Shown: positions 2 to 38,617, counted from the stretch's first letter. The stretch: DNA of 64,000 nucleotides from Clostridia bacterium (GCA_045655005.1 JAZOOJ010000006.1:70130-134129), one strand, 5' to 3'. The notes: generated by a model from the sequence alone, not told the origin. A program made the numbers and translations.

Positions 2-484
2 TACAAACTTGCAAGGGATGGCAAAGAATTTGATATAAAACCAAAAGACGTTGAAATTTATGGCTTAACGGCAAGTAGCATTGCTGGCGACAACTTATAT
101 GGTTTAAAAATATGGTGCTCTGCTGGTACATATATTAGAAGTTTAGGTTGCGATATTTTTAGGGCATTAAACACAAGAGCTACCATGACAAAACTGGTTA
201 GAACAAGGTCAGGTTCCTTTAAAATTTCCAATTCAATGACTATTGAAGAGATTTCAACAGAACCACAAAGTGCGTTAATCAGCATAGAAGACGCCTTAGA
301 AAATGTAGATGTAATTAGTTTAAACGAAGTAGAGTTTACAAAAATCAAAAATGGTGTTGTTATAAAAACAAACATTAAAGACGGCATATATTTAGCAAAA
401 TATTTAGACAAGATTATTGCTTTGGTAAATATAGCCAATGGACATATGAAAAGCGAAATTAATTTAATTGAGGGGAACAACTAA
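2..484 (+). CDS. truB: tRNA pseudouridine(55) synthase TruB, C-terminal part (5' end upstream of window)
   Basis: Frame 2 is open from base 2 to the TAA at 482-484. The translation contains the TruB-like motif CSAGTYIRSLGCDI...LVRTRSGSF. ORF-track entry 185..484 is only the internal-Met tail of this gene. Confidence 0.75.
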   Translation, partial: YKLARDGKEFDIKPKDVEIYGLTASSIAGDNLYGLKIWCSAGTYIRSLGCDIFRALNTRATMTKLVRTRSGSFKISNSMTIEEISTEPQSALISIEDALENVDVISLNEVEFTKIKNGVVIKTNIKDGIYLAKYLDKIIALVNIANGHMKSEINLIEGNN

Positions 485-1326
485 TGATTAAATTTGGGAC
501 ATCTGGTGTGTCGGATTCTATGAAAGAGGATAATCTAAACTATAATCAGGTCGCAAAGAGATTAAAAGAATTAGGACTTGACTGTTTTGAGTATCCATTT
601 ACATACGGAACAAATATAAGTGATGAAAAATGCAAAGAGATAGGGGATGCGTTTTTAAACGAAGGAGTGAGTTTGTCTGTTCATGCTCCTTACTATATTA
701 ATTTAGCGTCGGGAGATGAAGAATCAGTACTGAAAAGTTTTGGCCATATTTATAATTCTATGAAAAAAGCAAAAGTAATGGGTGCTGATAGAGTGATTTT
801 TCATCCGGGAAGTCTTACAAAGCAGACAAGAGAAGTAGCATTCAATAATGTACTTTCAAACTTAAAGAGGTTCGTTGAATCAATTACAGGAGATGAACTT
901 GTTGAGGGAGTATTATTGTGCCCTGAAACTATGGGTAAGCACGGACAAATTGGAACTCCCGATGAAGTTGTAGAAATGTGTAAACTTTCAAGTATACTAA
1001 TTCCAACAATTGACTTTGGTCATATCAATGCATTTAGTGGTGGGGGATTAATTTCAAAAGAAAGTTTTGCAAGTATCATTGAAAAATTTGTATTAGGTCT
1101 TGGCAAGAAAGAAATGCATATTCATTTTAGTAAAATTGAATATGGCGGAAAGGGTGAAATAAAGCATTTAACTTTTGAAACCGACCCAGGGTTTGGGCCT
1201 GATGAAAAATTGATGATTCAAGCACTTGTTGACTATGATGCAAATTTTAGAATTATATCTGAATCGGCGGGTACACAAGATAAAGATTCAAAAATTATGT
1301 TAGATTATTACAAAAAAGGGTTTTAA
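484..1326 (+). CDS. Endonuclease IV (Nfo)-like TIM-barrel protein
   Basis: 280 aa with metal-ligand-like motifs in Nfo order: [42 protein letters not shown]. Its start overlaps the truB stop (TAATG). Confidence 0.55.
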
Positions 1327-1379
1327 TTTTAATAAATCTATGTTATTATATTATAGACACATATTATAGGAGGGAGAAA

Positions 1380-1937
1380 ATGATTACTGCTGGAGAATTT
1401 AGAAAAGGCGTAACTTTTGAATTAGAAGGGAAAGTATATGTCGTGGTAGATTTTTTGCACGTTAAGCCAGGTAAAGGTTCTGCGTTTGTAAGAACAAAAA
1501 TCAAAAATGTAGTAACTGGTCAAGTAATAGAAAAGACATTTAACCCAACAGAGCGTTTTGAAAAGGCTCATATTGAAAGAAAAGAAATGTCTTATCTTTA
1601 TGAAGATGGTGGCTTGTATTATTTTATGGATAATAATACTTATGAACAAATTCCATTAAATAAAGATCAAGTTGAAGATGCATTAAACTATGTAACAGAA
1701 AATATGACTTGCACTATTCAATTCTATAAAGGCGAAGCATTCTCTGTTGAACCACCACTATTTGTTGAGTTGAACATTGTTGAATGCGAACCTGGTATTC
1801 AAGGTGATACATCAAAGGCTGGTTACAAGCCTGCAACTCTAGAAACTGGTCTTGTACTTCAAGTGCCATTATTTGTAAACAATGGTGAAAGAATCAGGAT
1901 TGATACAAGAACTGGAACATATATGGAAAGAGTTTAA
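1380..1937 (+). CDS. efp: Elongation factor P
   Basis: 185 aa. The N-terminus [43 protein letters not shown] is canonical EF-P. A GGAGGGAG RBS lies upstream. Confidence 0.95.
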
Positions 1938-1951
1938 TTTTATTATAAAAA

Positions 1952-1981
1952 ATGTCAGCAATATTTGCCGACATTTTTTTT
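1952..1981 (+). terminator. Rho-independent terminator after efp
   Basis: Stem ATGTCAGCA / TGCCGACAT (one mismatch) followed by a T8 run. Confidence 0.7.
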
Positions 1982-2040
1982 ATTGTAAAAATTTCATAGA
2001 ACGTGAATAGTTAAAATATGCTTTTAGTGGGAGAATGTAT

Positions 2041-2949
2041 ATGTTGGCAAAAATTATTCCTGCAGAATTACTAAATATGATAACAGCAAATTATGATTTA
2101 GAGTTTATATATGAAATACGAATAAGGCGAAATATGCCAATATGTATAAATGTTGCTGGAAAATATTTTGAGTTAAGAAGTCAAAGAGATAAAAAAATTG
2201 TATTTGCCGACAAACGCTTAATTGATTATATCTTGTTAAAAGCCACTGATTCGTCATTGTATTGTTATAACAATCAATTAAAGAATTGCTTTATTGCAAG
2301 TGTTGGGGGATTAAGGATTGGCGTATGTGGTGAGGTCGTGTATGATGACAACAAAAGTATAAAAACAATCAAGAATATATCTTCATTAAATATTAGGATT
2401 CCGCACGAAGTCGTAAATTGTTCAAAACCCATACAAAAATTTATTATGAATGAAAATGGTATAAATAATTGTTTAATTATTTCTCCGCCTTGCTGTGGAA
2501 AAACAACATTTATTAGAGATATTGCAAGAATTATTGGCTCGTCTGGTAAAGTTTTAAATACCTTAATTATTGATGAGAGATTTGAGATATGTGCGGGAAA
2601 CAATGGTGAACAATCTCTAAATGTGGGGTTATATGCTGATTGTATGTCTGGAAGTTCTAAGAATCTTGCCTTTACAGAAGGGGTTCGGTCGCTAAGACCT
2701 GATGTGATTATATGTGATGAACTTGCAAAGAAAGAAGATGTAGATGCGGTAAAACTTGCTATAAATTCGGGTGTTAAAGTCATTGCTACTGCTCACAGTG
2801 ACAGTTTTATGAATTTTAGGAGACGCACATATTTTAAAGAGTTGATAAATGAACAATATATAGATTTTTATATTTTTCTATCTATGAGAAATGGAGCAGG
2901 AACTATTGATGCAGTCTTTAATAAAGAATTAAGACCGGTGTGGGGGTGA
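2041..2949 (+). CDS. spoIIIAA: Stage III sporulation protein AA (ATPase)
   Basis: Walker A SPPCCGKTT and Walker B-like VIICDE. It is the first gene of an eight-gene spoIIIA-like operon. ATG 2041 has better spacing to the GGGAGA RBS than the track start 2035. Confidence 0.85.
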   Translation: MLAKIIPAELLNMITANYDLEFIYEIRIRRNMPICINVAGKYFELRSQRDKKIVFADKRLIDYILLKATDSSLYCYNNQLKNCFIASVGGLRIGVCGEVVYDDNKSIKTIKNISSLNIRIPHEVVNCSKPIQKFIMNENGINNCLIISPPCCGKTTFIRDIARIIGSSGKVLNTLIIDERFEICAGNNGEQSLNVGLYADCMSGSSKNLAFTEGVRSLRPDVIICDELAKKEDVDAVKLAINSGVKVIATAHSDSFMNFRRRTYFKELINEQYIDFYIFLSMRNGAGTIDAVFNKELRPVWG

Positions 2950-2954
2950 ATACT

Positions 2955-3434
2955 ATGAAATATTTATTATGTGTGGGCGTTATTGCTGGGTTTGGTTATA
3001 TTGGGCTGTGTGTTAGAAATCATTTATCAAAAAGAGTTCAATTTTATGCAGAACTTATTGATTTTTTAAACAAATTTATTATAAATATAAATTTTTTACA
3101 AGTTAATTTTATTGACTATTTAAATGAAGAAATTGCTAAGAACAATGAACTTGCAAAAGCATTAAGACAATTTAAACAAAATTATATAGATAATATATCA
3201 TCAGAGAATATAAAACATCTTTATTTAAGTGATAATGAATTAAATATTGTGTTTGAGTGTTTGAATTCGATAGGTTCAACAGATAGTGAAAATCAAATCG
3301 CATTACTTAATGGATATAAGGTGGAGTTTGAACAATTGCTTATAGAAAGCAGTGAGAAAATGAAAAAATACTCAGGTCTTGCAGTCAAGATGTCTATCAT
3401 AGTAGGTTGTTTAATTGTTTTGATTTTTATTTAG
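2955..3434 (+). CDS. spoIIIAB: Stage III sporulation protein AB
   Basis: Position in the operon, an N- and C-terminal TM segment, and a size of about 160 aa. ATG 2955 follows a GGGGGTGA RBS; the track start 2940 is a GTG inside spoIIIAA. Confidence 0.65.
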   Translation: MKYLLCVGVIAGFGYIGLCVRNHLSKRVQFYAELIDFLNKFIININFLQVNFIDYLNEEIAKNNELAKALRQFKQNYIDNISSENIKHLYLSDNELNIVFECLNSIGSTDSENQIALLNGYKVEFEQLLIESSEKMKKYSGLAVKMSIIVGCLIVLIFI

Positions 3435-28647: not shown

Positions 28648-30633
28648 ATGGAGTTATACGATATAAACGGTTTAGGCAAAAAACGCATAGAATCCTTAAA
28701 TTTACAAGGAATAAATTCTTGTGAAGATTTCTTAGATTATCAGCCCTATAAATATTATGATTTCACATCAATAGATAAGTTTGATGCAACTGCAACAAAC
28801 AGTCTTTTGGTGCGTGCATCAAATATTTCTGAAGCTAAGAGTGTATTTTTTAAAGGTCTAAATTATGTAATTTCAGAATTTCAAGAAATAGAAACTAATA
28901 AAAAATTTAAAGCGGTTTGGTATAACCAGCCATTTATGAAAAACAACCTAAGTGTTGGTGAAGAGTATTTTTTGTATGGCAAACCTAATTCAAAAAAACA
29001 ACTGGTTATTCAGAAATACTTTGAAGCAAGCAAAGAAGATGGGCATATTTTACCTTGTTATAAGCCAATGGAAGGAATATCTTCTGGCATAATAAAAAAA
29101 TCGATAGCACAAATTTTAGAACAAATTAAAAACAGTGATGATTTTATCAAGGAAGAACAGTCGATATTGGGTTTAATGCCTATACTTGAAGCATACAAAA
29201 TGTTACATTCCCCAAGGTGCTTAGATGACATCGAGAAAGCCAAACTAAGAATAAACTTAGACAAATTATTACTATTCGTTGCACTTGAAAGCATTATTGA
29301 AAACAATAGAGAACAAAAGAGTTTTAGTTATAAAAAAATAACAATTAACGATTTTGAAAATTTGTTGCCATATAGGCTTACAAATGGGCAAAATGAAGCA
29401 GTTAAGGCTGTTTTTGAGGATATGGATAAAAGTATAGTAATGAACAGATTGGTTCTTGGAGATGTTGGTTCGGGGAAAACTATGGTTGCATTTGCAAGCA
29501 TCTTTAAAGCGATAATTTCCGGTTTCCAAGCGGTTATGTTATGTCCAACAGAAGTGCTTGCTAGTCAGCATTTTGAAAACTCCAAGAAGATATTTAAAGA
29601 TTATAACGTAGTTTTTTTACACTCGAGCATATCACATTCAGACAAAAAAGCGATATTAGAAAATATTGAAAGCGGAACAGCGCAAATTGTAATTGCAACG
29701 CATTCGGTTTTAAGTGATAATGTAAAATTTAAAAATTTATCATTAGTCATAACCGATGAACAGCATAGATTTGGTGTGGAACAGCGTGCTAATCTATCTA
29801 AAAAACAAACAGTTGACCAAATTGTAATGAGTGCAACACCAATTCCAAGAAGTCTAGCACTTGTTCTTTATGGGGGACTTGATGTAAGTGAAATTAATGA
29901 CAGACCTGGTGGAGAAAGTAAAATCAAGACAAATATACTATCTTCCAAAAAAGTCGATGATATGTGGCATTTTATAGCAAACGAATTAAAAACTAAGAAC
30001 AAAAAATGCTTTGTAATTGTTCCAAGAGTTTTTGATGGAGATGGAGATTTAAAGTCAATTACAGAAATAGAGAAAGAAATTCAAAACCTTGGACTGTTTA
30101 ACAAAGACGAAATATGTTGCGTTCACGGCAAGATGAAGTCAGCGGAAAGTGATAAAATCTTACAAGAGTTTCGTGACGGAAGTGGTAAAGTGCTAATTGC
30201 AACGACTATTGTTGAAGTGGGTATTGATATAAAACAAGCAAACATAATGGTTGTATATAATGCTGAGCGTTTTGGACTTAGCACCTTACATCAATTGCGT
30301 GGCAGGGTTGGAAGAGATGGCTCAGAAGGGTTCTGTTTCTGTGTTAGCGATGAGATAAATGAAATATCTCAAAAAAGGCTAAAAATATTTAAAGAAAATA
30401 ACAATGGATTAAAAATTGCCGAAGAAGATTTAAAATTGCGTGGCTCTGGTACAATATATGGAACCAAGCAACACGGAGTAAATGAGATATTTAATGAAAT
30501 TGGATTTACAGTGAGTGGATTTGAAAAAGCTAAGGAAATTTGGCGGGATTTAGATTTTATAGTTCAAGAGAACTTAAAAAAACAAGCCTTGCAAAAATAT
30601 GGTGAACTTTATAAAAAAATAGTAATAAATTAA
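28648..30633 (+). CDS. recG: ATP-dependent DNA helicase RecG
   Basis: GDVGSGKT, ITDEQHRFGV, MSATPIPR, LHQLRGRVGRDG. Confidence 0.9.
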   Translation: MELYDINGLGKKRIESLNLQGINSCEDFLDYQPYKYYDFTSIDKFDATATNSLLVRASNISEAKSVFFKGLNYVISEFQEIETNKKFKAVWYNQPFMKNNLSVGEEYFLYGKPNSKKQLVIQKYFEASKEDGHILPCYKPMEGISSGIIKKSIAQILEQIKNSDDFIKEEQSILGLMPILEAYKMLHSPRCLDDIEKAKLRINLDKLLLFVALESIIENNREQKSFSYKKITINDFENLLPYRLTNGQNEAVKAVFEDMDKSIVMNRLVLGDVGSGKTMVAFASIFKAIISGFQAVMLCPTEVLASQHFENSKKIFKDYNVVFLHSSISHSDKKAILENIESGTAQIVIATHSVLSDNVKFKNLSLVITDEQHRFGVEQRANLSKKQTVDQIVMSATPIPRSLALVLYGGLDVSEINDRPGGESKIKTNILSSKKVDDMWHFIANELKTKNKKCFVIVPRVFDGDGDLKSITEIEKEIQNLGLFNKDEICCVHGKMKSAESDKILQEFRDGSGKVLIATTIVEVGIDIKQANIMVVYNAERFGLSTLHQLRGRVGRDGSEGFCFCVSDEINEISQKRLKIFKENNNGLKIAEEDLKLRGSGTIYGTKQHGVNEIFNEIGFTVSGFEKAKEIWRDLDFIVQENLKKQALQKYGELYKKIVIN

Positions 30634-30669
30634 AAAATAAAAAAATTTTTAAAAATTTGAAAAATATGC

Positions 30670-30698
30670 TTGATTATTTTTAAAAGATGTGGTAGACT
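30670..30698 (+). promoter_or_regulatory. Sigma-A-like promoter for tRNA-Gly
   Basis: TTGATT, 17-nt spacer, TGgTAGACT, 45 nt upstream of the tRNA 5' end. Confidence 0.45.
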
Positions 30699-30742
30699 AA
30701 CTATTGTGTTTGAGAGATAACACAAAAAATTAGTCTATTTAT

Positions 30743-30817
30743 GCGGGAGTGGCTCAGTGGTAGAGCGTTGCCTTGCCAAGGCAAATGTCGCGAGTTCGAA
30801 TCTCGTCTTCCGCTCCA
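30743..30817 (+). tRNA. tRNA-Gly (anticodon GCC), CCA encoded
   Basis: Manual cloverleaf: acceptor GCGGGAG/CTTCCGC, D-arm GCTC-AGTGGTA-GAGC, anticodon arm TTGCC-TTGCCAA-GGCAA, T-arm GCGAG-TTCGAAT-CTCGT, discriminator U, CCA. Confidence 0.95.
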
Positions 30818-30820
30818 TAA

Positions 30821-30852
30821 AAACCTTAGGAATTTCCTAAGGTTTATTTTTT
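30821..30852 (+). terminator. Rho-independent terminator after tRNA-Gly
   Basis: 10-bp stem AAACCTTAGG / CCTAAGGTTT followed by ATTTTTT. Confidence 0.8.
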
Positions 30853-30858
30853 ATGCTA

Positions 30859-30887
30859 TTGAAATTTTAAAGTGATTATGATATTCT
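30859..30887 (+). promoter_or_regulatory. Sigma-A type promoter of the orphan three-gene operon
   Basis: TTGAAA, 17-nt spacer, TGaTATTCT, 26 nt upstream of ATG 30913. Confidence 0.5.
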
Positions 30888-30912
30888 TAGTTTATAAATA
30901 TAGGGGGTATAT

Positions 30913-31998
30913 ATGAGTAAAACCGAACAAGAAATATATCAAGAAGTCGTTAATTATATAAATGGTCGAAATCACAAAAGACCTTGCACATTACAAACTA
31001 TTAAAAAAGAACTTAGAAGCCCAAGAATTGTAGAGTTGATTTTTTTAAATCCTAGAGTTTTTAATCTTGATGCAGAAATTTTACACGTTCCTAAAGAATT
31101 AAGAACTGAAGAATTATTGATGAGTTTTATACTTGAAGATCCTAAAAGATTAGAAAGTTTGCCAGAAGATGAGCAGAGTTTACCTTTACTAATAGCATAC
31201 GAATTTTCAAAACGACGTTATGAGTTTGCGTCTGCAAGAATGTGGGGTGTATGGAGAGAAAAGCTCGGATATTTAGGCAAGGCAAAAGAATATCGTGAAA
31301 GTGTAGTGCAAATTGCAGATCAGATTGAAAAGACTTGCAAGTGGGCGTATAAAGAAACAAGCGATTTTGAACTAATAGAAATGATAAAATCATATTGTGC
31401 CGTTAATGAAATCTCTTTAGAAAAACCAGAGGTTTATATTCCAAAGTATCGCAATGTAAATTTCGATTTAGATAAAAGATTAGTGATTTTGGTATCTGGG
31501 CATCCAGATTCTGGTAAAACATATTTTTCGAACCTTTTAGCGAATACGATATCTGGGGCATTTTGTTTTGATTCTGATATGCTTGATGAAAGAACTTATA
31601 AAATGCCATTTACAGAGTTAACTAGGAGAAGTGAAGTTGTTGTATTTTCAGATCCCGATGCTGATAGGTTCTTTGACGATGAGGAATTGAAGGGTAGTTA
31701 TGTAATAAATATTTATGTAAATCCTATTTCGATTGAAGAAATGTACAGACACTCAAAATATATGCGTGGAATACCGCAAGACGAATATGTAAAGCATTAT
31801 TCAATTGAAAGGAAGCCAAGCCCAGAAAGGTTTAAAGATGCGATTCAAGTTACTAATAATTATACGAGTGCAATTTATCAAGAAATAGATATGGTTATAG
31901 ATGAGATTACTCGAAGATTAAATCTATTTATAAAAGAGAAGATTACAAGAGAAGATATTGTCCCAGGCTATGATTTTTCACAACTTAAAAGCGAATAA
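30913..31998 (+). CDS. Orphan operon protein A: unknown N-terminal half plus C-terminal P-loop kinase-like domain
   Basis: 361 aa. Walker A GHPDSGKT (res 196-203), then FCFDSD, VVVFSD, and YVINIYVNPISIEEMYRH. This order resembles shikimate/gluconate/NMP-kinase-fold proteins. Residues 1-185 are not recognised. Confidence 0.6.
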   Translation: MSKTEQEIYQEVVNYINGRNHKRPCTLQTIKKELRSPRIVELIFLNPRVFNLDAEILHVPKELRTEELLMSFILEDPKRLESLPEDEQSLPLLIAYEFSKRRYEFASARMWGVWREKLGYLGKAKEYRESVVQIADQIEKTCKWAYKETSDFELIEMIKSYCAVNEISLEKPEVYIPKYRNVNFDLDKRLVILVSGHPDSGKTYFSNLLANTISGAFCFDSDMLDERTYKMPFTELTRRSEVVVFSDPDADRFFDDEELKGSYVINIYVNPISIEEMYRHSKYMRGIPQDEYVKHYSIERKPSPERFKDAIQVTNNYTSAIYQEIDMVIDEITRRLNLFIKEKITREDIVPGYDFSQLKSE

Positions 31999-32012
31999 AA
32001 GGGGGATAAAAA

Positions 32013-32768
32013 ATGTATTGGTGGCATTTATACGAAGATAAAAGGAATGAAGAATGGGAAACTGAACATTCTTCTTTGGGGCAAAAAAATGCCTATGCTA
32101 AATATTATAGGTGCAGAAAATATGTGTGTATGGACATTTCTCAAAAAACTTGGTGCGACATTCCGCAAGGCTGTGGTATTTTTGAGATTCCAAAAGGGAC
32201 AGAATGGCACTTCATTGGGAGAGTAGATACAACTGGTTGGGCAGGAAGTAATCCAGACTATTATTTTAGAGATTTTGAGAATAGAGAATTTGTAGGGTTT
32301 AGTACTATCAGTAATAAAAATATTTCAAGATATATGAAGACAGGGGCATTTTTTATTTACAACATAATGCCCGATGATATTGCACATATTTTTCCTATGG
32401 ATAGTGATACAAAAAAGCATGTTGAAGTTGAAAGTGAATTGTCGGGGCTTCCAAGTCTATGGTTAACATTAGATGAATTAGAGGCTATTAAAAACAAAAT
32501 TGGTTGCTATGATCAAATTACTTGCAGAACTAAAAGGAATGGCAAAATTATAAAACCCGTAGCAGTAGTTGCTTATGATAATGTAAGCGAAGAAATTGAA
32601 GAAATTGCATATGCTTTTGGGGTTCCAATCCTACTTACTCATCCAGATGAAAATGTAATTAATTTTAGTGGTGATATGTTGCGTCAAAGATATATGCTAA
32701 CGAGAGCATCAAAAGTTTTTAAAAAACCATATGACATCAATGTTGAATGTATGGAGTATTTTGATTAG
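32013..32768 (+). CDS. Orphan operon protein B: hypothetical, Trp/Cys-rich N-terminus
   Basis: 251 aa, 14 nt after protein A with a GGGGGA RBS. Cys pattern CX4C-X8-CX5C (res 34-54). No family recognised. Confidence 0.55.
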   Translation: MYWWHLYEDKRNEEWETEHSSLGQKNAYAKYYRCRKYVCMDISQKTWCDIPQGCGIFEIPKGTEWHFIGRVDTTGWAGSNPDYYFRDFENREFVGFSTISNKNISRYMKTGAFFIYNIMPDDIAHIFPMDSDTKKHVEVESELSGLPSLWLTLDELEAIKNKIGCYDQITCRTKRNGKIIKPVAVVAYDNVSEEIEEIAYAFGVPILLTHPDENVINFSGDMLRQRYMLTRASKVFKKPYDINVECMEYFD

Positions 32769-32798
32769 TTTAAAATAAAGATTGTAAGGGTGATAATT

Positions 32799-34703
32799 AT
32801 GGATCTAAATCAATTTTATAATCTAAGTGAAAATGAATTATTGACAGTTTTAATGAAACTTAAAGATGAGATGGGTGAAAATTTTAATAAACATATAGAA
32901 AAGCTTATTCACGAAAAATTAAGAGATTACCAAAACATCTTAAATTTTTATTATGATGTTGGCTATGGCGAAGGAAGTAATGAAGATTATATGTATTTCA
33001 AAAATCAACTTGAAAATGTCTTGCCGAACTTATTAAAACTTATTAATGTTGCAAGCAAGGTTGGTGTTTTTGTTGGCGACATTTTTGAAGAATTGGTAGA
33101 CAATGAGCTTTCATTTGAGGAATCACTAAATATTGATTTTAAGAAGAAATCAGTATTAAGTAAGGAACTATATAATAAATTTAAAGAGGTTGCACAACAG
33201 GTAAAAAATCCAAACGCATTATATTCGCTATATTTTATGACTGGCGACATCGATTACTTGCATAAATGTATTGACGTTTGTTCATTTGAGCAGTTGATTA
33301 AATTATTTGGTTTATTCAAAGAAGGCAAAGGCGAAAATGAGGTTATTATTACCAACAAGCCTAATAGGGCATCAAACAGATTAACAATTTCAGACTATCC
33401 TCTCTATGTACTAGAAGGCAGAAACTTTGATGATATGTATGAGTTATTAATAAGACGAATGGTACAAAATGCAAGTAAAGAAGAATTACAAAAATATTAT
33501 AGGTATGATTCAAGTCTAGATTTTAATATATTTGATATTTTAGTTGATGCTTGGAGAATTGGAGTTTTTAACAACGCAGATGAGTTCGCAAGATATGCTC
33601 TTGATAAACACTATTATCCAATAATTTTTGCCAAAGAGATGCAAGAAGAAGAGCTTTTCTTGGATTTTACAAGCGATGAAATATTGCTGGAAATTCTAGA
33701 ATTAATTAATACTGATAAAGAAAAGTGTTTAACAGAAAATGATAGTCAAGGTTTATTTTATTTAATAGAGCAAGAAATACAAGCGTTCTTAGCATTAGAC
33801 AATCCAAACATTAAGGGTGCTGATGTAGTGCTATCTAGGTTTAATACAAAGAAGCATTTATATTCTTGGATGCCAATAGCAAAAAGGTTGCTTGATTGCG
33901 AAAATGTAAACGCAGAGTTGTTTAAGTCTTGGGTGCAGGAATTTTTCAAAAATGATGAATTTTTCAAGAAATATTCTTTCGTAGGGAAGGAAGATTTTTG
34001 GGATTTCATCGCAAAAATTCCAGAAACTTTGCAAGAAGAAAAACAAGCGTTACAAATGTGGCGTTATTGTAGAGATAATTTACCAACACAAATACAACAT
34101 TATAAAAACACATTACATCGTGAGATGGCATTTTATAATAAAACAGGATATCTTAAAACCCGTATAATAGTATATCAAATTGGAGAGGAATATCTTTTGC
34201 AAGGTAATGATGGAATACGACGTAGATACAGAGATATATGTGGTGTAAGATTTCCAGTCGAAATTTCTAGTGGGTTGCCTTGGAGCGAAAGTGATTTTCA
34301 TGAGATGGAAGATTTACACCATTGGCATTGCGAAGTAGATGGTAATACACGTCATATGGAAGATTTTACGATATATGTTTGGTGTGTTGAAAATAAAGAT
34401 GGAACAATGGAGGCTGTTCATAAAGTCGGTCTAAATAACAGTCAAGGGGAAGCACATTCAATTGATCAACTTTATAGAGAGTTTAATGACGAGTATGTAA
34501 TTTATCTTAACAAGTTTATAGAAAGAGCAAACGATTTAACTAATGCTTTTAATCAAATTGTGTCAAGTTACTTATTAAATGCTCAGTATGATAGAAATTT
34601 ATTGCAAAAATTTGAAGAATTAAGAAAGCGTTTGTTTATTTGTGAGGCTAAACTTAAAGGTCAAAATATTGAAAATACAGAGCAGACAAGTGGAGAAAAT
34701 TAA
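32799..34703 (+). CDS. Orphan operon protein C: large hypothetical protein (helical N-terminal two-thirds, His/Cys/acidic beta-rich module, C-terminal coiled coil)
   Basis: 634 aa from ATG 32799 (the track uses GTG 32790). No family recognised. The segment HEMEDLHHWHCEVDGNTRHMEDFTIYVWCVENK lies at 34299-34397. Confidence 0.55.
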   Translation: MDLNQFYNLSENELLTVLMKLKDEMGENFNKHIEKLIHEKLRDYQNILNFYYDVGYGEGSNEDYMYFKNQLENVLPNLLKLINVASKVGVFVGDIFEELVDNELSFEESLNIDFKKKSVLSKELYNKFKEVAQQVKNPNALYSLYFMTGDIDYLHKCIDVCSFEQLIKLFGLFKEGKGENEVIITNKPNRASNRLTISDYPLYVLEGRNFDDMYELLIRRMVQNASKEELQKYYRYDSSLDFNIFDILVDAWRIGVFNNADEFARYALDKHYYPIIFAKEMQEEELFLDFTSDEILLEILELINTDKEKCLTENDSQGLFYLIEQEIQAFLALDNPNIKGADVVLSRFNTKKHLYSWMPIAKRLLDCENVNAELFKSWVQEFFKNDEFFKKYSFVGKEDFWDFIAKIPETLQEEKQALQMWRYCRDNLPTQIQHYKNTLHREMAFYNKTGYLKTRIIVYQIGEEYLLQGNDGIRRRYRDICGVRFPVEISSGLPWSESDFHEMEDLHHWHCEVDGNTRHMEDFTIYVWCVENKDGTMEAVHKVGLNNSQGEAHSIDQLYREFNDEYVIYLNKFIERANDLTNAFNQIVSSYLLNAQYDRNLLQKFEELRKRLFICEAKLKGQNIENTEQTSGEN

Positions 34704-34721
34704 AAAACAAAATAAGAATTA

Positions 34722-34750
34722 TTGACTTTAGTTGAACAATAGTATATACT
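34722..34750 (+). promoter_or_regulatory. Sigma-A promoter of the trpS leader
   Basis: TTGACT, 17-nt spacer, TATACT. The predicted transcription start is about 23 nt before the leader-peptide ATG. Confidence 0.6.
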
Positions 34751-34779
34751 AAAATCAATAATAGGAAAGGAGAGATTAT

Positions 34780-34812
34780 ATGTTTAATTCATTTATGTGG
34801 TGGCGTAGATAA
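34780..34812 (+). CDS. Putative trpS leader peptide MFNSFMWWRR with tandem Trp codons
   Basis: AAAGGAGAG SD ends 7 nt before the ATG. Ten codons including UGG-UGG at 34798-34803, then UAA. Lies 167 nt upstream of trpS and is immediately followed by alternative hairpins. Confidence 0.6.
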   Translation: MFNSFMWWRR

Positions 34813-34815
34813 TTT

Positions 34816-34858
34816 AGCGTTCGCAAAAGACTAATATGTTTTGTGAATGCTTTTTATT
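34816..34858 (+). terminator. Leader hairpin 1 (X1:Y1) with U-tract: pause or terminator element
   Basis: 13-bp stem 34816-34828 / 34839-34851 (two G-U pairs) followed by TTTTTATT. Confidence 0.45.
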
Positions 34859-34910
34859 GCGTCGCAAAACATATAAATGGATTAAATATTTTTAATATGA
34901 ATAAAATCTA

Positions 34911-34964
34911 AAACCCGTTGGTATGTTTTGTTTAATCAAACTTTCAACGGGTTTATTATATTTT
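34911..34964 (+). terminator. Leader hairpin 2 (T2), the probable attenuator terminator before trpS
   Basis: 10-bp stem AAACCCGTTG / CAACGGGTTT (34911-34920 / 34945-34954), with an apical 4-bp helix 34930-34933 / 34938-34941, then ATTATATTTT. Confidence 0.5.
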
Positions 34965-34978
34965 AGGAGATTTTAAGT

Positions 34979-35968
34979 ATGAAAAAAACTATGCTAACTG
35001 GTGTAAGACCAAGTGGGAACTTAACATTGGGAAATTATTTAGGGGCAATTAAAAATTTTGTTGATAAGCAAGATGAGTATGATAGTTACATTTTTCTTGC
35101 GGATTTGCACGCAATTACAAGTTATATTGAACCTCAAAAATTAAAAGATTCAGTATATAAATCTATTGCTATGTATTTGGCTTGTGGAGTAAATCCAGAA
35201 AAAACTATTATTTTTAAACAAAGCGATGTTTTAGAACATGGAACGCTGGGGTTTATAATGACATTTCAAACAAAAATGGGCGAACTGTCAAGAATGACGC
35301 AATTTAAGTCTAAGGCAAATAACAGTGGCAAAGAGGGGGTTGATACTGGGCTGTTTGTATATCCAACATTGATGGTCGCAGATATTTTATTGTATAACAC
35401 ATCAATTGTGCCTGTTGGAAAAGACCAACAGCAACACGTTGAATTAACACGTGATTTGGCTGAACGATTTAATAAAAGGTACGGAGAAACTTTTGTGATG
35501 CCAGACGTATACGTGGCACCTGTCGGCAATAAAATTTTAAATCTGCAAAACCCATCAGAAAAAATGAACAAATCCGATAGTGGAGATAATAAGGGAACGA
35601 TATTTTTATTAGACGATATTGAAGTTGCAAAGAAGAAAATAATGTCAGCAAAAACAGATTGCTTTAATAGGGTTCGCTTTGATGAAGAAAATCAACCAGG
35701 CATATCAAACCTTATGAGTATATTAAGCAAAATAACTAATGAAAGTTTTGAAAGTATTGAAAAAAGGTATGAAAATAAAGGCTATGGTGAATTTAAAAAA
35801 GAAGTTGCAGAAGTTGTCGCAAATTTGCTAACCGGTATTCAAAATAAATATCATAAATATGACGATAAGGAAATATTAAATAGTATATTAAGCAAAGGAG
35901 CAAAAGATGCTCAGTGTGTTGCCAATAAAACCTTACAAAGGGCGACAAAAGCCTTGGGACTAAATTAA
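34979..35968 (+). CDS. trpS: Tryptophan--tRNA ligase
   Basis: Class I motifs: HIGH-equivalent at the N-terminus (TGVRPSGNLTLGNYLG) and KMSKS-equivalent KMNKS. Confidence 0.95.
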   Translation: MKKTMLTGVRPSGNLTLGNYLGAIKNFVDKQDEYDSYIFLADLHAITSYIEPQKLKDSVYKSIAMYLACGVNPEKTIIFKQSDVLEHGTLGFIMTFQTKMGELSRMTQFKSKANNSGKEGVDTGLFVYPTLMVADILLYNTSIVPVGKDQQQHVELTRDLAERFNKRYGETFVMPDVYVAPVGNKILNLQNPSEKMNKSDSGDNKGTIFLLDDIEVAKKKIMSAKTDCFNRVRFDEENQPGISNLMSILSKITNESFESIEKRYENKGYGEFKKEVAEVVANLLTGIQNKYHKYDDKEILNSILSKGAKDAQCVANKTLQRATKALGLN

Positions 35969-35983
35969 TATTTATAAATAAAA

Positions 35984-36014
35984 ACAGTATTATGCAAACT
36001 TTGTATAATACTGT
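35984..36014. terminator. Hairpin between convergent trpS and the M16 peptidase gene
   Basis: 10-bp stem ACAGTATTAT / ATAATACTGT. The A/T-rich flanks fit the minus-strand gene best. Confidence 0.5.
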
Positions 36015-36022
36015 AAATAATT

Positions 36023-37324
36023 TTAAAATTCGAATTTAAAAATGTTAGATATTGTTTCATAAGTAGGTAGTTGTTCTTCGTTAACATCTCCCATAATTAC
36101 CACGTAAGGGAGATTATTTGAATTAAATATTGTTTTTGCATAGTCTTGCAATTCTTGTTTTTTAATCTTTTTAATCATTTTAATTGTCTTTTTTGATGTC
36201 ATTGTTTTTGATAATGATTGATACGTTAAAAAGTGGTTTAAGTTAAACTTTGCACGATTATATTTCATAGAACCATGCATCTCGTCGTGTGCATAAATTT
36301 CAGAGTTTTTGCTGTTTTTAAAGTCATCGTCAGGTATATCGTTCTTAATTATCGAATCAATACAAGATTTTAATACTTCAAAGCATCTTTGAATTTTATC
36401 TTGACTTGTTGAAATGCTGAAGCCAAATATCGCATCTTTATCGTCAAAGACTGGTATAAATGAGGAAGAGTTGTAAACTAAACCTTCATTTCTAAGTTTA
36501 TTGTAGAATTGATTTGTACCATAGTTAAAGTAGTTTGCAAGAATTGTGTCAAGTAATGTTTGTTTTTTATTTTCTTCGTCAAACTCATATTTAAAACCAA
36601 TTAATACTCGTGCTTGATTATTCTCGTTGTGGTGAATTATAATGGAGGGTTCTTTGGTTATCTTTATTGGGTAGAAGTTGTTTTTTAAGCTTTCATTTTT
36701 TTGTAAATTAGGAATAAAATACTTATCAACATACTTTTTTAATTTCCTAAACGAAAAATTACCGCAATACGATAAAATAAAATTATCTATACAAAAATTT
36801 TTGTCTTTGTAATTTATGAGTGTATTTGCGTCAATATTTGCAAGGTCGTCAACAGTACCCAACCTTTGTTCCAGGGTTAGAGTGTTTGTAAAATGTTTTC
36901 CAAATTGTTGTCCGATTTCGTGGTGTAAGTTGTCTATTGCTCTTTTATATTCTTCGGAAATCACGCTTTTTTCATTTTCTATTAACTCATCATCGCATAC
37001 AGAGTTTAATAAAATATCTGATGTGACGCTCATTGCTTTATCAAATAATCTGTTTGATTGAGAAAAGTCAATTGCGATTAAATTTGTACTTGTGTATGCG
37101 TTTAAAGAAGTGATTATACTACGCTCTTTATTTATTTCATCAAGCGTTAAGTTTTTTGTTTTTGTAAACATAGTATGCTCAACAAAGTGTGCAACTCCAT
37201 TTTGTTCATTTTTTATTGAACCACATAAGAAGCCTGCAATAACCGCAGAGTAATTAAGGCGTTTGTCTTTTTGATAAATTAAAGTTGCTCCATTTGAGTA
37301 TTTATATATTATTTTTCTTTTCAT
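36023..37324 (-). CDS. M16 (pitrilysin/insulinase) family zinc peptidase
   Basis: 433 aa. Inverted zincin motif HFVEH (GVAHFVEHTMF) near the N-terminus. Confidence 0.8.
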   Translation of the reverse strand: MKRKIIYKYSNGATLIYQKDKRLNYSAVIAGFLCGSIKNEQNGVAHFVEHTMFTKTKNLTLDEINKERSIITSLNAYTSTNLIAIDFSQSNRLFDKAMSVTSDILLNSVCDDELIENEKSVISEEYKRAIDNLHHEIGQQFGKHFTNTLTLEQRLGTVDDLANIDANTLINYKDKNFCIDNFILSYCGNFSFRKLKKYVDKYFIPNLQKNESLKNNFYPIKITKEPSIIIHHNENNQARVLIGFKYEFDEENKKQTLLDTILANYFNYGTNQFYNKLRNEGLVYNSSSFIPVFDDKDAIFGFSISTSQDKIQRCFEVLKSCIDSIIKNDIPDDDFKNSKNSEIYAHDEMHGSMKYNRAKFNLNHFLTYQSLSKTMTSKKTIKMIKKIKKQELQDYAKTIFNSNNLPYVVIMGDVNEEQLPTYETISNIFKFEF

Positions 37325-37477
37325 TTATTTTCTCCTATATGTACATTATAAAGTGTACCATTAGGGTAAAGTCAATAGGAAAAAGAAAAATAAAATAAAC
37401 GCTTGCTAAAAATATTAACTGTGATATAATTAAAACGTTGGTAGAAATAATAGATTTTCAATTTTTAGGTAAATAAA

Positions 37478-38095
37478 ATGGAAGAAATACAAAAGAGGAT
37501 TGATTACATTATAAATTACGTCATACAAAAAGAGTTGAAGACGGGGAAATTATTAGAAGATGCTAAACGTAAATATACCCACGGCTATTGTATGAGCCTT
37601 GCGACATTAATCAAAGCACAATTCTTAGATAATGAAAATGTACGTATGTTTGAGTTTGGAAGAACTTATCGAAAGATTGAAACGTCCTGTCAATACAAAT
37701 GGAAAGGTCAAGTTTGGCATATCTGTATTGTTGTTGGAGATGTCGATGAACTTGGCAGGCCCGTTTCAGATGCTATAGTCTTTGATATAAATGGAGCAAA
37801 ACTATTTAAAGATATGCCTGAGTATTTAACCGAACAATATCCAAATCCATTTGACTGTAACTACACTGAGGATAATGTGTTTGCGCTAGATCACAAAAAG
37901 TATGTAATAGAAGATAGTGTTGAACCAGCAGAGATGAAAAAGTACGAAATTTTAAGGGAAGAAGAAGGCGTCATTGAAGAATGTTATTATGAGTTTTTAG
38001 ATGAGATAAGAAGAGATGAAACGCATAAACCCACACCATTTTTTGCTTTACTTTCTGAACAATCGCAAGTACAAGAATGTGGAGAAATTGAATGA
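37478..38095 (+). CDS. Hypothetical protein (possible papain/transglutaminase-like Cys-His-Asp fold)
   Basis: 205 aa. Contains HGYCMSLA (C38), VWHICIVVG (H81) and VFDING (D103). Its stop overlaps the next gene's start (ATGA). Confidence 0.45.
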   Translation: MEEIQKRIDYIINYVIQKELKTGKLLEDAKRKYTHGYCMSLATLIKAQFLDNENVRMFEFGRTYRKIETSCQYKWKGQVWHICIVVGDVDELGRPVSDAIVFDINGAKLFKDMPEYLTEQYPNPFDCNYTEDNVFALDHKKYVIEDSVEPAEMKKYEILREEEGVIEECYYEFLDEIRRDETHKPTPFFALLSEQSQVQECGEIE

Positions 38096-38535
38096 GAATT
38101 TTAGTTTTAAGTGATAGCCACGGAAGAGTTGGTTTAATCCAAGATTTAATTGAGAAGGAGAATTTTGATAAGGCAATTTTTCTTGGAGATGGATTAAAAG
38201 ATTTTGAATATATTGATGACGAAAGGTTCATCAAACTTGCGGGGAATTGTGATTGGTTCTCTGATGAGTCAAAAGAATTTCAGTTAAATCTTGACAAGGT
38301 GAAAGTTTTTGCGACTCACGGACATTTGTATAAAGTAAAACTAGGGCTTGGAAGCTTATTGAAATATGCGAAAGATAAAAATTTCAATTTAGTGTTGTAT
38401 GGGCATACGCATACTCAAAAGGAAGAAGTGATAGATAAAATCTGTTTTGTAAATCCTGGAAGTATTGCAAATGGTAAATACGCAATGATTGAAATAGTGG
38501 ATAATGAAATAAAAATTAAACTTAAATCTATTTAA
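38092..38535 (+). CDS. YfcE/MJ0936-family metallophosphoesterase
   Basis: MRILVLSDSHG, FLGDG, THGH, GHTH and NPGS motifs in canonical order. Confidence 0.85.
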   Translation: MRILVLSDSHGRVGLIQDLIEKENFDKAIFLGDGLKDFEYIDDERFIKLAGNCDWFSDESKEFQLNLDKVKVFATHGHLYKVKLGLGSLLKYAKDKNFNLVLYGHTHTQKEEVIDKICFVNPGSIANGKYAMIEIVDNEIKIKLKSI

Positions 38536-38617
38536 TATAATGAAAAATTAAAATATATGTTTGATTTTGGTTTAAATAGTGTTATAATATGAAAAACAAT
38601 TGAAGAAAAGGTGTTTT

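Follow-up and report, generated by a model that had tools for sequence, protein, structure and literature searches.

What are three adjoining genes of no named family doing among the housekeeping genes of a Clostridia bacterium, and do they make up one system? The question is raised by a stretch of 64,000 nucleotides (GCA_045655005.1 JAZOOJ010000006.1:70130-134129; hereafter the window), in which genes A, B and C stand between a tRNA-Gly gene and trpS. An earlier interpretation from the DNA alone (the sequence-only reading) had proposed three co-oriented open reading frames (ORFs) of 361, 251 and 634 amino acids with gaps of 14 and 30 nucleotides, and our ORF coordinates agree with it:

30913-31998, + strand, gene A, ORF of 361 amino acids
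32013-32768, + strand, gene B, ORF of 251 amino acids
32799-34703, + strand, gene C, 634 amino acids from ATG; soluble, acidic, clade-restricted ORFan

If C started instead at the GTG at 32790, it would have 637 amino acids (three residues more). Scans of the three proteins against Pfam, NCBIfam, PHROGs and PADLOC gave nothing at cut-off, with matches at the level of the P-loop only for A; that B and C lack a recognisable family and the trio a named system, as had been remarked before, therefore holds at curated cut-offs. The public records call A and B 'hypothetical protein [Clostridia bacterium]', a literature search by accession numbers returned nothing, and an exact look-up of the B protein of the window matched no recorded contig. 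Aromatic residues are abundant in all three proteins, known domains are lacking, and neither transmembrane segments nor signal peptides were found in them. We consider it reasonably probable that A, B and C are three evolutionarily independent genes, gathered in a lineage-restricted native cluster and probably co-transcribed.

A, B and C have different phyletic ranges

A, B and C are evolutionarily independent genes with very different phyletic ranges. The homologs form 8 clusters for A, 59 clusters at 90% identity for B and 3 clusters for C. The distribution of B was surveyed with one genome per species, and 185,579 species yielded 21 loci with B. The sequence-only reading had taken the trio for a coherent system that independent occurrence of its genes would refute, and independent occurrence is what we found: B stands without A or C in 20 of the 21 loci, and remote homologs of A stand without B or C. 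The single trio-bearing locus is that of a sister genome (L001/L005), whose proteins are 78% (B), 65% (A) and 45% (C) identical to those of the window, with recG at 73%. Profile hidden Markov models (HMMs) of A and C found no matches across the other B loci, and a weak A-profile match near B in L016 was discarded as the housekeeping dephospho-CoA kinase CoaE. On the long contigs L002 and L003, B lies alone among unrelated genes, and when 379 ORFs from 23 loci with B were clustered all against all, no neighbour of B recurred. The remote A homologs (49% and 35% identity; L026, L029 and L028) are flanked by unrelated genes, including unrecognised ORFs of 409, 238 and 935 amino acids without Pfam domains, and searches with hmmsearch, phmmer and hhalign for cryptic analogues of B or C beside them found none. 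C is present only directly downstream of A, in 4 of 4 C-bearing loci.

The sister genome keeps the order recG-tRNA-Gly-A-B-C at the same site as the window. An empty tRNA-Gly junction, which the sequence-only reading had proposed to look for in related genomes, was seen in none of three: the site in L001 is occupied by the trio, and that in metagenome contig L030 is occupied too. A tRNA gene precedes some homologs of A or B (L029, L007, L002) and not most of them, and tRNA adjacency was rejected as a family trait. A transfer-messenger RNA gene lies 4-6 kb upstream of B in one B sub-clade (L003, L010, L014, L017), which is probably plain synteny.

The core of B is deleted in the closest relatives

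Two metagenome contigs from two samples (L030 and L031; A 97% and C 82% identical to the window) carry A, an ORF of 60 amino acids, C and trpS, with L030 starting inside the tRNA gene. The short ORF, here called mini-B, results from an in-frame deletion:

32101-32671, + strand, segment of B missing in L030 and L031, about residues 30-220, the whole conserved core

Mini-B (L030 1233-1415; L031 247-429) corresponds to window positions 32013-32100 joined to 32672-32768; it keeps the first ~29 and the last ~31 residues of B, and no invariant core residue is left in it. Since both contigs lack the core of B yet have intact A and C genes, the putative catalytic body of B appears dispensable for the role of A and C, and this natural deletion is a ready genetic contrast for the role of B.

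The same comparison revealed a mosaic. Over window positions 30789-38600, identity to L030 is 95% upstream of the deletion (most of A) and 82% downstream of it (C, trpS and beyond), and the synonymous divergence (dS) is 0.07 for A, 0.54 for C and 0.84 for trpS, a pattern that suggests a recent exchange by homologous recombination between related lineages whose breakpoint was at B. Between L030 and L031 themselves, 16 mismatches were counted, concentrated in the mini-B ORF.

The cluster is native and under purifying selection

Nei-Gojobori estimates against orthologs put the ratio of non-synonymous to synonymous substitution rates (dN/dS) at 0.15-0.27 in A, 0.076 in B and 0.17-0.36 in C, where recG and trpS, taken for scale, have 0.065 and 0.056. 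Because the ratio is low in all three, A, B and C are real genes under purifying selection. They are also native: the comparison of composition suggested alongside the sequence-only reading placed the GC content, the GC content at third codon positions and the synonymous-codon distance of A, B and C inside the spread of the window's other 49 genes, and their composition is not foreign. No repeats like those of phage attachment (att) sites and no copy of the tRNA 3' end were found in 30600-35100, no integrase is among the ORFs between tRNA-Gly and trpS, and scans of IMG/VR with the profiles of A, B and C gave no viral relatives. That a native, vertically inherited and lineage-restricted cluster is lodged here in the core chromosome of a low-GC uncultured gut Clostridia bacterium seems to us, on balance, the probable account.

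Protein A resembles P-loop kinases

Two domains and one motif carry the assignment of A:

residues ~1-165 of A, all-alpha N-domain (model and alignment)
residues ~185-340 of A, P-loop kinase-like C-domain (model and alignment)
31495-31521, + strand, Walker A of A, S195-G-H-P-D-S-G-K202-T203 (nine-sequence alignment)

The Walker A motif conforms to the pattern GxxxxGK[ST]. Within the alignment of nine A sequences, the Walker A residues G196, P198, S200, G201, K202 and T203 are invariant (9 of 9), and D220-S-D222 and F245-S-D247 are invariant after them; the region richest in invariant columns is N-terminal, where residues ~1-120 are strongly conserved. The AlphaFold model, with a predicted local distance difference test score (pLDDT) of 83, has the all-alpha N-domain, an alpha/beta C-domain and a disordered tail (residues 343-361), and A ends ~20 residues past the P-loop domain. 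A Foldseek search of the PDB with this model returned P-loop kinases as 49 of the 50 top matches, including shikimate, gluconate, uridine-cytidine, APS, guanylate, adenylate and dephospho-CoA kinases and PPK2, at probability 0.96-1.00, target template-modelling (TM) score about 0.5 (range 0.2-0.55) and E 3e-4 to 6e-3, while a sequence-profile search of the PDB found AdkA-like and UPF0200 kinases around the P-loop. The P-loop kinase fold that had been recognised by eye in the C-terminal half of A is thus recovered by sequence profiles and Foldseek alike, as a generic kinase type. Curated Pfam kinase families gave no match at gathering score (AAA_18 reached 12.6 bits against a cut-off of 29.4, and no other kinase family, SKI, AAA_33 and Zeta_toxin included, was significant), and because the fold scores are weak, we hold the kinase membership of A at superfamily level only. 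A scan of the JGI metagenomes with the A profile gave a single match, 25% identical and over the kinase domain only.

Two other kinds of weak match were seen. In PADLOC, where B and C had no matches, A matched mad8 (E 0.0039) and Csx3 (E 0.0066), both over the P-loop. Sub-threshold matches to nSTAND3 (PF20720) occur in 8 of the 9 A-family members at profile positions ~5-45 of 155; the A of the window scores 14.6 bits against a cut-off of 27.2 (positions 5-41 of 155), and one member alone, P0003, passes the cut-off with 29.0 bits (positions 10-49). We rejected A as a STAND NTPase, as these matches are confined to the Walker A strand-loop-helix and the fold search gives kinases, not STAND or AAA+ proteins.

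Since A combines the Walker A lysine K202 with the invariant D220-x-D222 after strand 2, it would be an ATP-dependent kinase of the class of P-loop kinases that resemble nucleoside monophosphate (NMP), shikimate and gluconate kinases, and its conserved helical N-domain would select the substrate or partner. We take D220-x-D222 to lie at the place of the acceptor-activating or Mg-binding aspartate of NMP-kinase-like kinases, and the DSD presumably resembles the DxD of shikimate, gluconate and polynucleotide kinases; in Escherichia coli AroK, the matching position presumably reads FYDSDQEIE.

Protein B is an enzyme-like member of an undescribed family

All B-bearing loci of the species survey come from metagenome-assembled genomes (MAGs) of uncultured gut Clostridia or Bacilli. 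Thirty-one aligned B sequences, 36-78% identical to the B of the window, share 18 invariant columns, with invariant polar residues including S20, C34, R70, T73, N103, S105, H125, D130, Y166, Q168 and T170, and because many of the invariant columns are polar, B may be an enzyme. The sequence-only reading had described B as a small Cys-cluster protein; the cysteines are not conserved as a cluster, C34 alone being invariant and C39 conserved in at least 90% of the sequences. The predicted structure is very confident (pLDDT 93.6, predicted TM score 0.91) and places B in an alpha/beta family, with N-terminal helices (3-25) and C-terminal helices (226-247) apart from the alpha/beta core in sequence.

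Searches with this model and with the sequences gave no known counterpart. Foldseek found no match in the PDB (best E ~2, TM ~0.1), and in BFVD, a collection of viral structures, the best match was non-significant (E 0.018, TM 0.36), the phage proteins matched being unnamed or without assigned function. A sequence-profile search of the PDB returned chance-level matches only, a consensus of weak library matches across the whole B family gave no signal, and PADLOC over the 31 aligned members found nothing consistent, two members having one singleton weak match each. B as an ADP-ribosyltransferase, a candidate raised by an R...STx...QxT pattern seen by eye, was rejected, as Foldseek finds neither that fold nor another PDB fold. 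Taken together, the model and alignment suggest that B is an enzyme-like member of an undescribed family and a candidate new fold without a PDB counterpart, and it would be a sound choice for structural genomics and the functional annotation of uncultured gut Clostridia. B would be a self-sufficient cytosolic enzyme acting alone; it is solitary in nearly all genomes, and its rate of evolution is as low as that of recG. Between A and C it would stand by an accident of gene order and be dispensable.

Protein C is a clade-restricted ORFan

An exhaustive HMMER search with the C profile over 1.84e9 representative proteins returned two orthologs, a fragment of 40 amino acids and one weak relative, P0072 (352 amino acids), which matches the C profile at E 2e-6 and covers residues 2-156 of C. 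Neither A nor B is in the locus of P0072 (L032), and C has no sequence relatives in the PDB and no detected repeats. L032 is a further metagenome contig, in which P0072 sits next to acpS (472-3228) among four small paralogous ORFs (128-143 amino acids; pairwise E 1e-6 to 1e-10) without Pfam domains.

C evolves faster than its neighbours, with 45% identity to the L001 ortholog against 73% for recG. In windows of 60 codons, its dN/dS (omega) ranges from 0.02 to 0.50, and no window exceeds 1, by which positive selection on C was rejected. Two stretches stand out:

32979-33248, + strand, most constrained part of C, residues ~61-150, omega ~0.02
34287-34367, + strand, His/Cys/acidic stretch of C, residues ~497-523; not conserved

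The constrained residues ~61-150 fall within the sole region with a remote relative, the one shared with P0072. The His/Cys/acidic stretch had been singled out as a module of C by the sequence-only reading and does not bear that weight, as ortholog P0070, with 45% identity, has substitutions or deletions there. Most likely, C would be a clade-specific partner or substrate of A, or a protein that presents a substrate to it, acting through the constrained residues ~60-150.

Layout and transcription of the locus

The cluster begins 42 nucleotides past tRNA-Gly, and its borders are set by the following features:

30743-30817, + strand, tRNA-Gly(GCC) (ARAGORN; Rfam 70.8 bits), identical in sister genome L001
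30821-30853, + strand, intrinsic terminator of tRNA-Gly, 11-bp stem (30821-30845) then T-run
30859-30887, + strand, candidate sigma-70-type promoter of A-B-C, TTGAAA-17-(TG)ATATTCT, extended -10
34722-34750, + strand, trpS promoter TTGACT-17-TATACT, 18 nucleotides past the C stop; downstream boundary of the cluster

Between the tRNA gene and trpS there is no substantial ORF besides A, B and C; the few others are 60-83 amino acids long and run antisense within these three. The terminator stem has one compensatory change in L001. The promoter just past it, which the sequence-only reading had proposed, is present and is kept in L001 as TTGAAT-17-TGTTATAAT, with both the -35 and the extended -10 element retained; its function is predicted from sequence. 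Such a site alone proves little, because this AT-rich region shows no enrichment of promoter-like sequences (22 found, 26.9 expected). The end of the cluster is also as first described, 18 nucleotides ahead of the trpS promoter, and the interval from the C stop (34703) to that promoter is free of terminator-like sites. A single terminator-like site is internal to the cluster, a 5-bp stem at 32163-32176, at chance level (3 found, 1.7 expected).

The layout is that of an operon, with three genes on the same strand, short gaps, one upstream promoter and no internal terminator beyond chance, and a G-rich ribosome-binding site (RBS) of GGGGG or GGGTG type precedes each of A, B and C. Since the tight same-strand layout and the conserved promoter fit co-transcription, A, B and C are probably transcribed together from one sigma-70-type promoter, with predicted read-through into the trpS leader.

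The flanks are fmt, rlmN, rpe, fakA/yloV and recG upstream and trpS, an M16 peptidase gene, argS and queH downstream. Of the housekeeping setting described earlier, the conserved flanks stand and the adjacency of trpS is limited to the sub-lineage of the window, as the trio of L001 has no trpS next to it. In L001, C is followed directly by a homolog of orf205, then by a Metallophos gene, argS and queH. In the window (34979-37324) and L030, C and the orf205 homolog are separated by trpS and the divergent M16 peptidase gene, which are not at that place in L001 (5963-6210). orf205 itself (window 37478-38095) encodes 205 amino acids without a Pfam match and has orthologs in L001 (173 amino acids, 33% identical) and L030 (197 amino acids).

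A candidate attenuator in the trpS leader

Downstream of the cluster, the leader of trpS has features of its own:

34704-34978, + strand, trpS leader, 276 nucleotides, promoter TTGACT-17-TATACT
34780-34812, + strand, leader ORF MFNSFMWWRR*, 10 codons, tandem TGG (Trp), strong RBS
~34911-34964, + strand, long hairpin and intrinsic terminator of the trpS leader (RNA fold)

The leader folds at -63 kcal/mol (z = -7.6 against shuffled controls) and has 98% identity across the window, L030 and L031, as against ~82% for the genes on either side. Rfam found no T-box in it. It looks like a classical Trp leader-peptide, ribosome-mediated attenuator, not a T-box. A comparative study reported that aminoacyl-tRNA synthetase (aaRS) genes of Firmicutes use T-boxes and none uses classical attenuation (PMC1262725); the trpS attenuator, if true, would be a mode of aaRS control which, according to that study, was not known from Firmicutes, with T-boxes dominant there. 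The B family and, separately, this attenuator are the pieces of most interest in the locus.

Discussion

We propose that the trio is a native, lineage-restricted cluster of independent genes, and several observations weigh against this. The tight spacing, the shared promoter and the order kept in C-bearing genomes would be expected of a functional module as well. There are only five independent contexts of A, and independence was measured by adjacency, so A and B could co-occur unlinked in the same MAGs. The kinase, partner and enzyme roles of A, C and B are ones that we infer, and the kinase assignment of A stands on weak Foldseek E values (3e-4 to 6e-3), with no Pfam kinase family at gathering score. 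Mini-B has retained the reading frame, the RBS and the N-terminal EWExxHSSL motif conserved in the family, and its two alleles differ by 7 synonymous and 3 non-synonymous codons, a statistic that rests on 10 codons in contigs L030 and L031 that are 99.4% identical overall. This apparent constraint is a hint that some portion of B could still be of importance for A or C.

The last points lead to a rather unlikely alternative, in which A and C form a two-gene module of a kinase and a fast-evolving clade-specific partner or sensor, with B as an adaptor through its terminal helices and mini-B bridging the two or coupling their translation. The invariable position of C downstream of A in 4 of 4 loci, the frame, RBS, spacing and EWExxHSSL kept by mini-B, the 7 synonymous differences against 3 non-synonymous ones and the modelled separation of the retained helices 3-25 and 226-247 from the core would all fit it, but the four loci belong to one narrow clade in which A-C linkage could be plain synteny, the remote A homologs have unrelated neighbours, and the mini-B count is as small as said above. 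An extension of this idea, that B represents a new enzyme family, confined to uncultured gut Clostridia and Bacilli, whose fold has no PDB representative, and that in this clade its terminal helices double as an A-C adaptor, which would explain the survival of mini-B, strikes us as distinctly improbable; if it were true, the kinase A, B or mini-B, and C would together make up a new regulatory or conflict module centred on a kinase. Still less probable is that the three are lineage-specific sporulation or differentiation proteins, spore enzymes or structural proteins of the kind that is typically taxonomically restricted and unannotated. The confinement of the B family to MAGs of uncultured gut Clostridia and Bacilli, the YabP, YabQ, SpoIIID and SpoVT genes near B in L002 and L003, and the aromatic-rich composition without known domains would suit such proteins, yet the conserved promoter resembles vegetative sigma-70 promoters that have an extended -10, the spore genes are not recurrent neighbours of B, no feature of the window connects the trio with sporulation, and signal peptides and transmembrane segments are lacking.

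The least probable of these accounts, and a very unlikely one, is the three-component conflict or anti-phage system of the sequence-only reading, which would consist of an NTPase, an effector of small size and a large sensor protein beside a tRNA gene. It could draw on the adjoining tRNA gene and the lack of a known function for A, B and C, on the faster evolution of C (45% against 73% for recG), on the recurrent sub-threshold nSTAND3 matches in 8 of 9 A members (one at 29.0 against 27.2 bits) and on the weak matches of A to mad8 and Csx3 (E ~0.004-0.007). However, its components are found apart, and the core of B is lost while A and C are kept; the B family has no consistent PADLOC match, and the model of A is kinase-like, not STAND or AAA+; composition and codons are native, with no integrase, att repeat or viral relative and an occupied sister site; dN/dS never rises above 1 in the windows of C, and neither the Cys cluster of B nor the His/Cys module of C is conserved. 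Measured by what usually marks such loci, A, B and C have no significant defence-type HMM match, no module is conserved across unrelated genomes, the native codons, housekeeping flanks and occupied sister site are not those of a variable or mobile island, and the integrase with tRNA 3' repeat of a tRNA island is absent. We are therefore inclined to conclude that the cluster is neither a mobile island nor a three-component defence system, and with the defence candidate not upheld, follow-up effort is spared.

Comparison with known systems

The preferred reading, a native cluster of independent genes, can be set against four known kinds of system. A resembles the P-loop NMP-kinase-like kinases (shikimate kinase PF01202, gluconate kinase, AAA_18/AAA_33, AdkA-like/UPF0200) in its GxPxSGKT Walker A, in the D-S-D right after strand 2 and in its five-stranded alpha/beta core. 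However, by inspection of the alignment it lacks the GGG shikimate-binding motif of shikimate kinase, and its all-alpha N-domain of ~170 residues has no detectable relative. With STAND proteins (nSTAND3), the A family shares a weak P-loop similarity, and C as a large helical neighbour could be imagined as a detached sensor, whereas A has no C-terminal helical or repeat sensor and C has no detectable repeats or relatives.

Like tRNA-linked or defence islands, the cluster begins 42 nucleotides past a tRNA gene and is made of unannotated genes, but it differs from them in having no integrase, att repeats, foreign codons, PADLOC match, viral relatives or empty sister site. Closest in character are the ORFan and hypothetical families of uncultured gut Firmicutes, to which C with its two orthologs, the purifying selection on A, B and C, and their place in the core chromosome correspond, although B departs from the ORFans, and offers more than the usual hypothetical protein, as a well-populated family of 59 clusters with a confident predicted fold that has no PDB counterpart.

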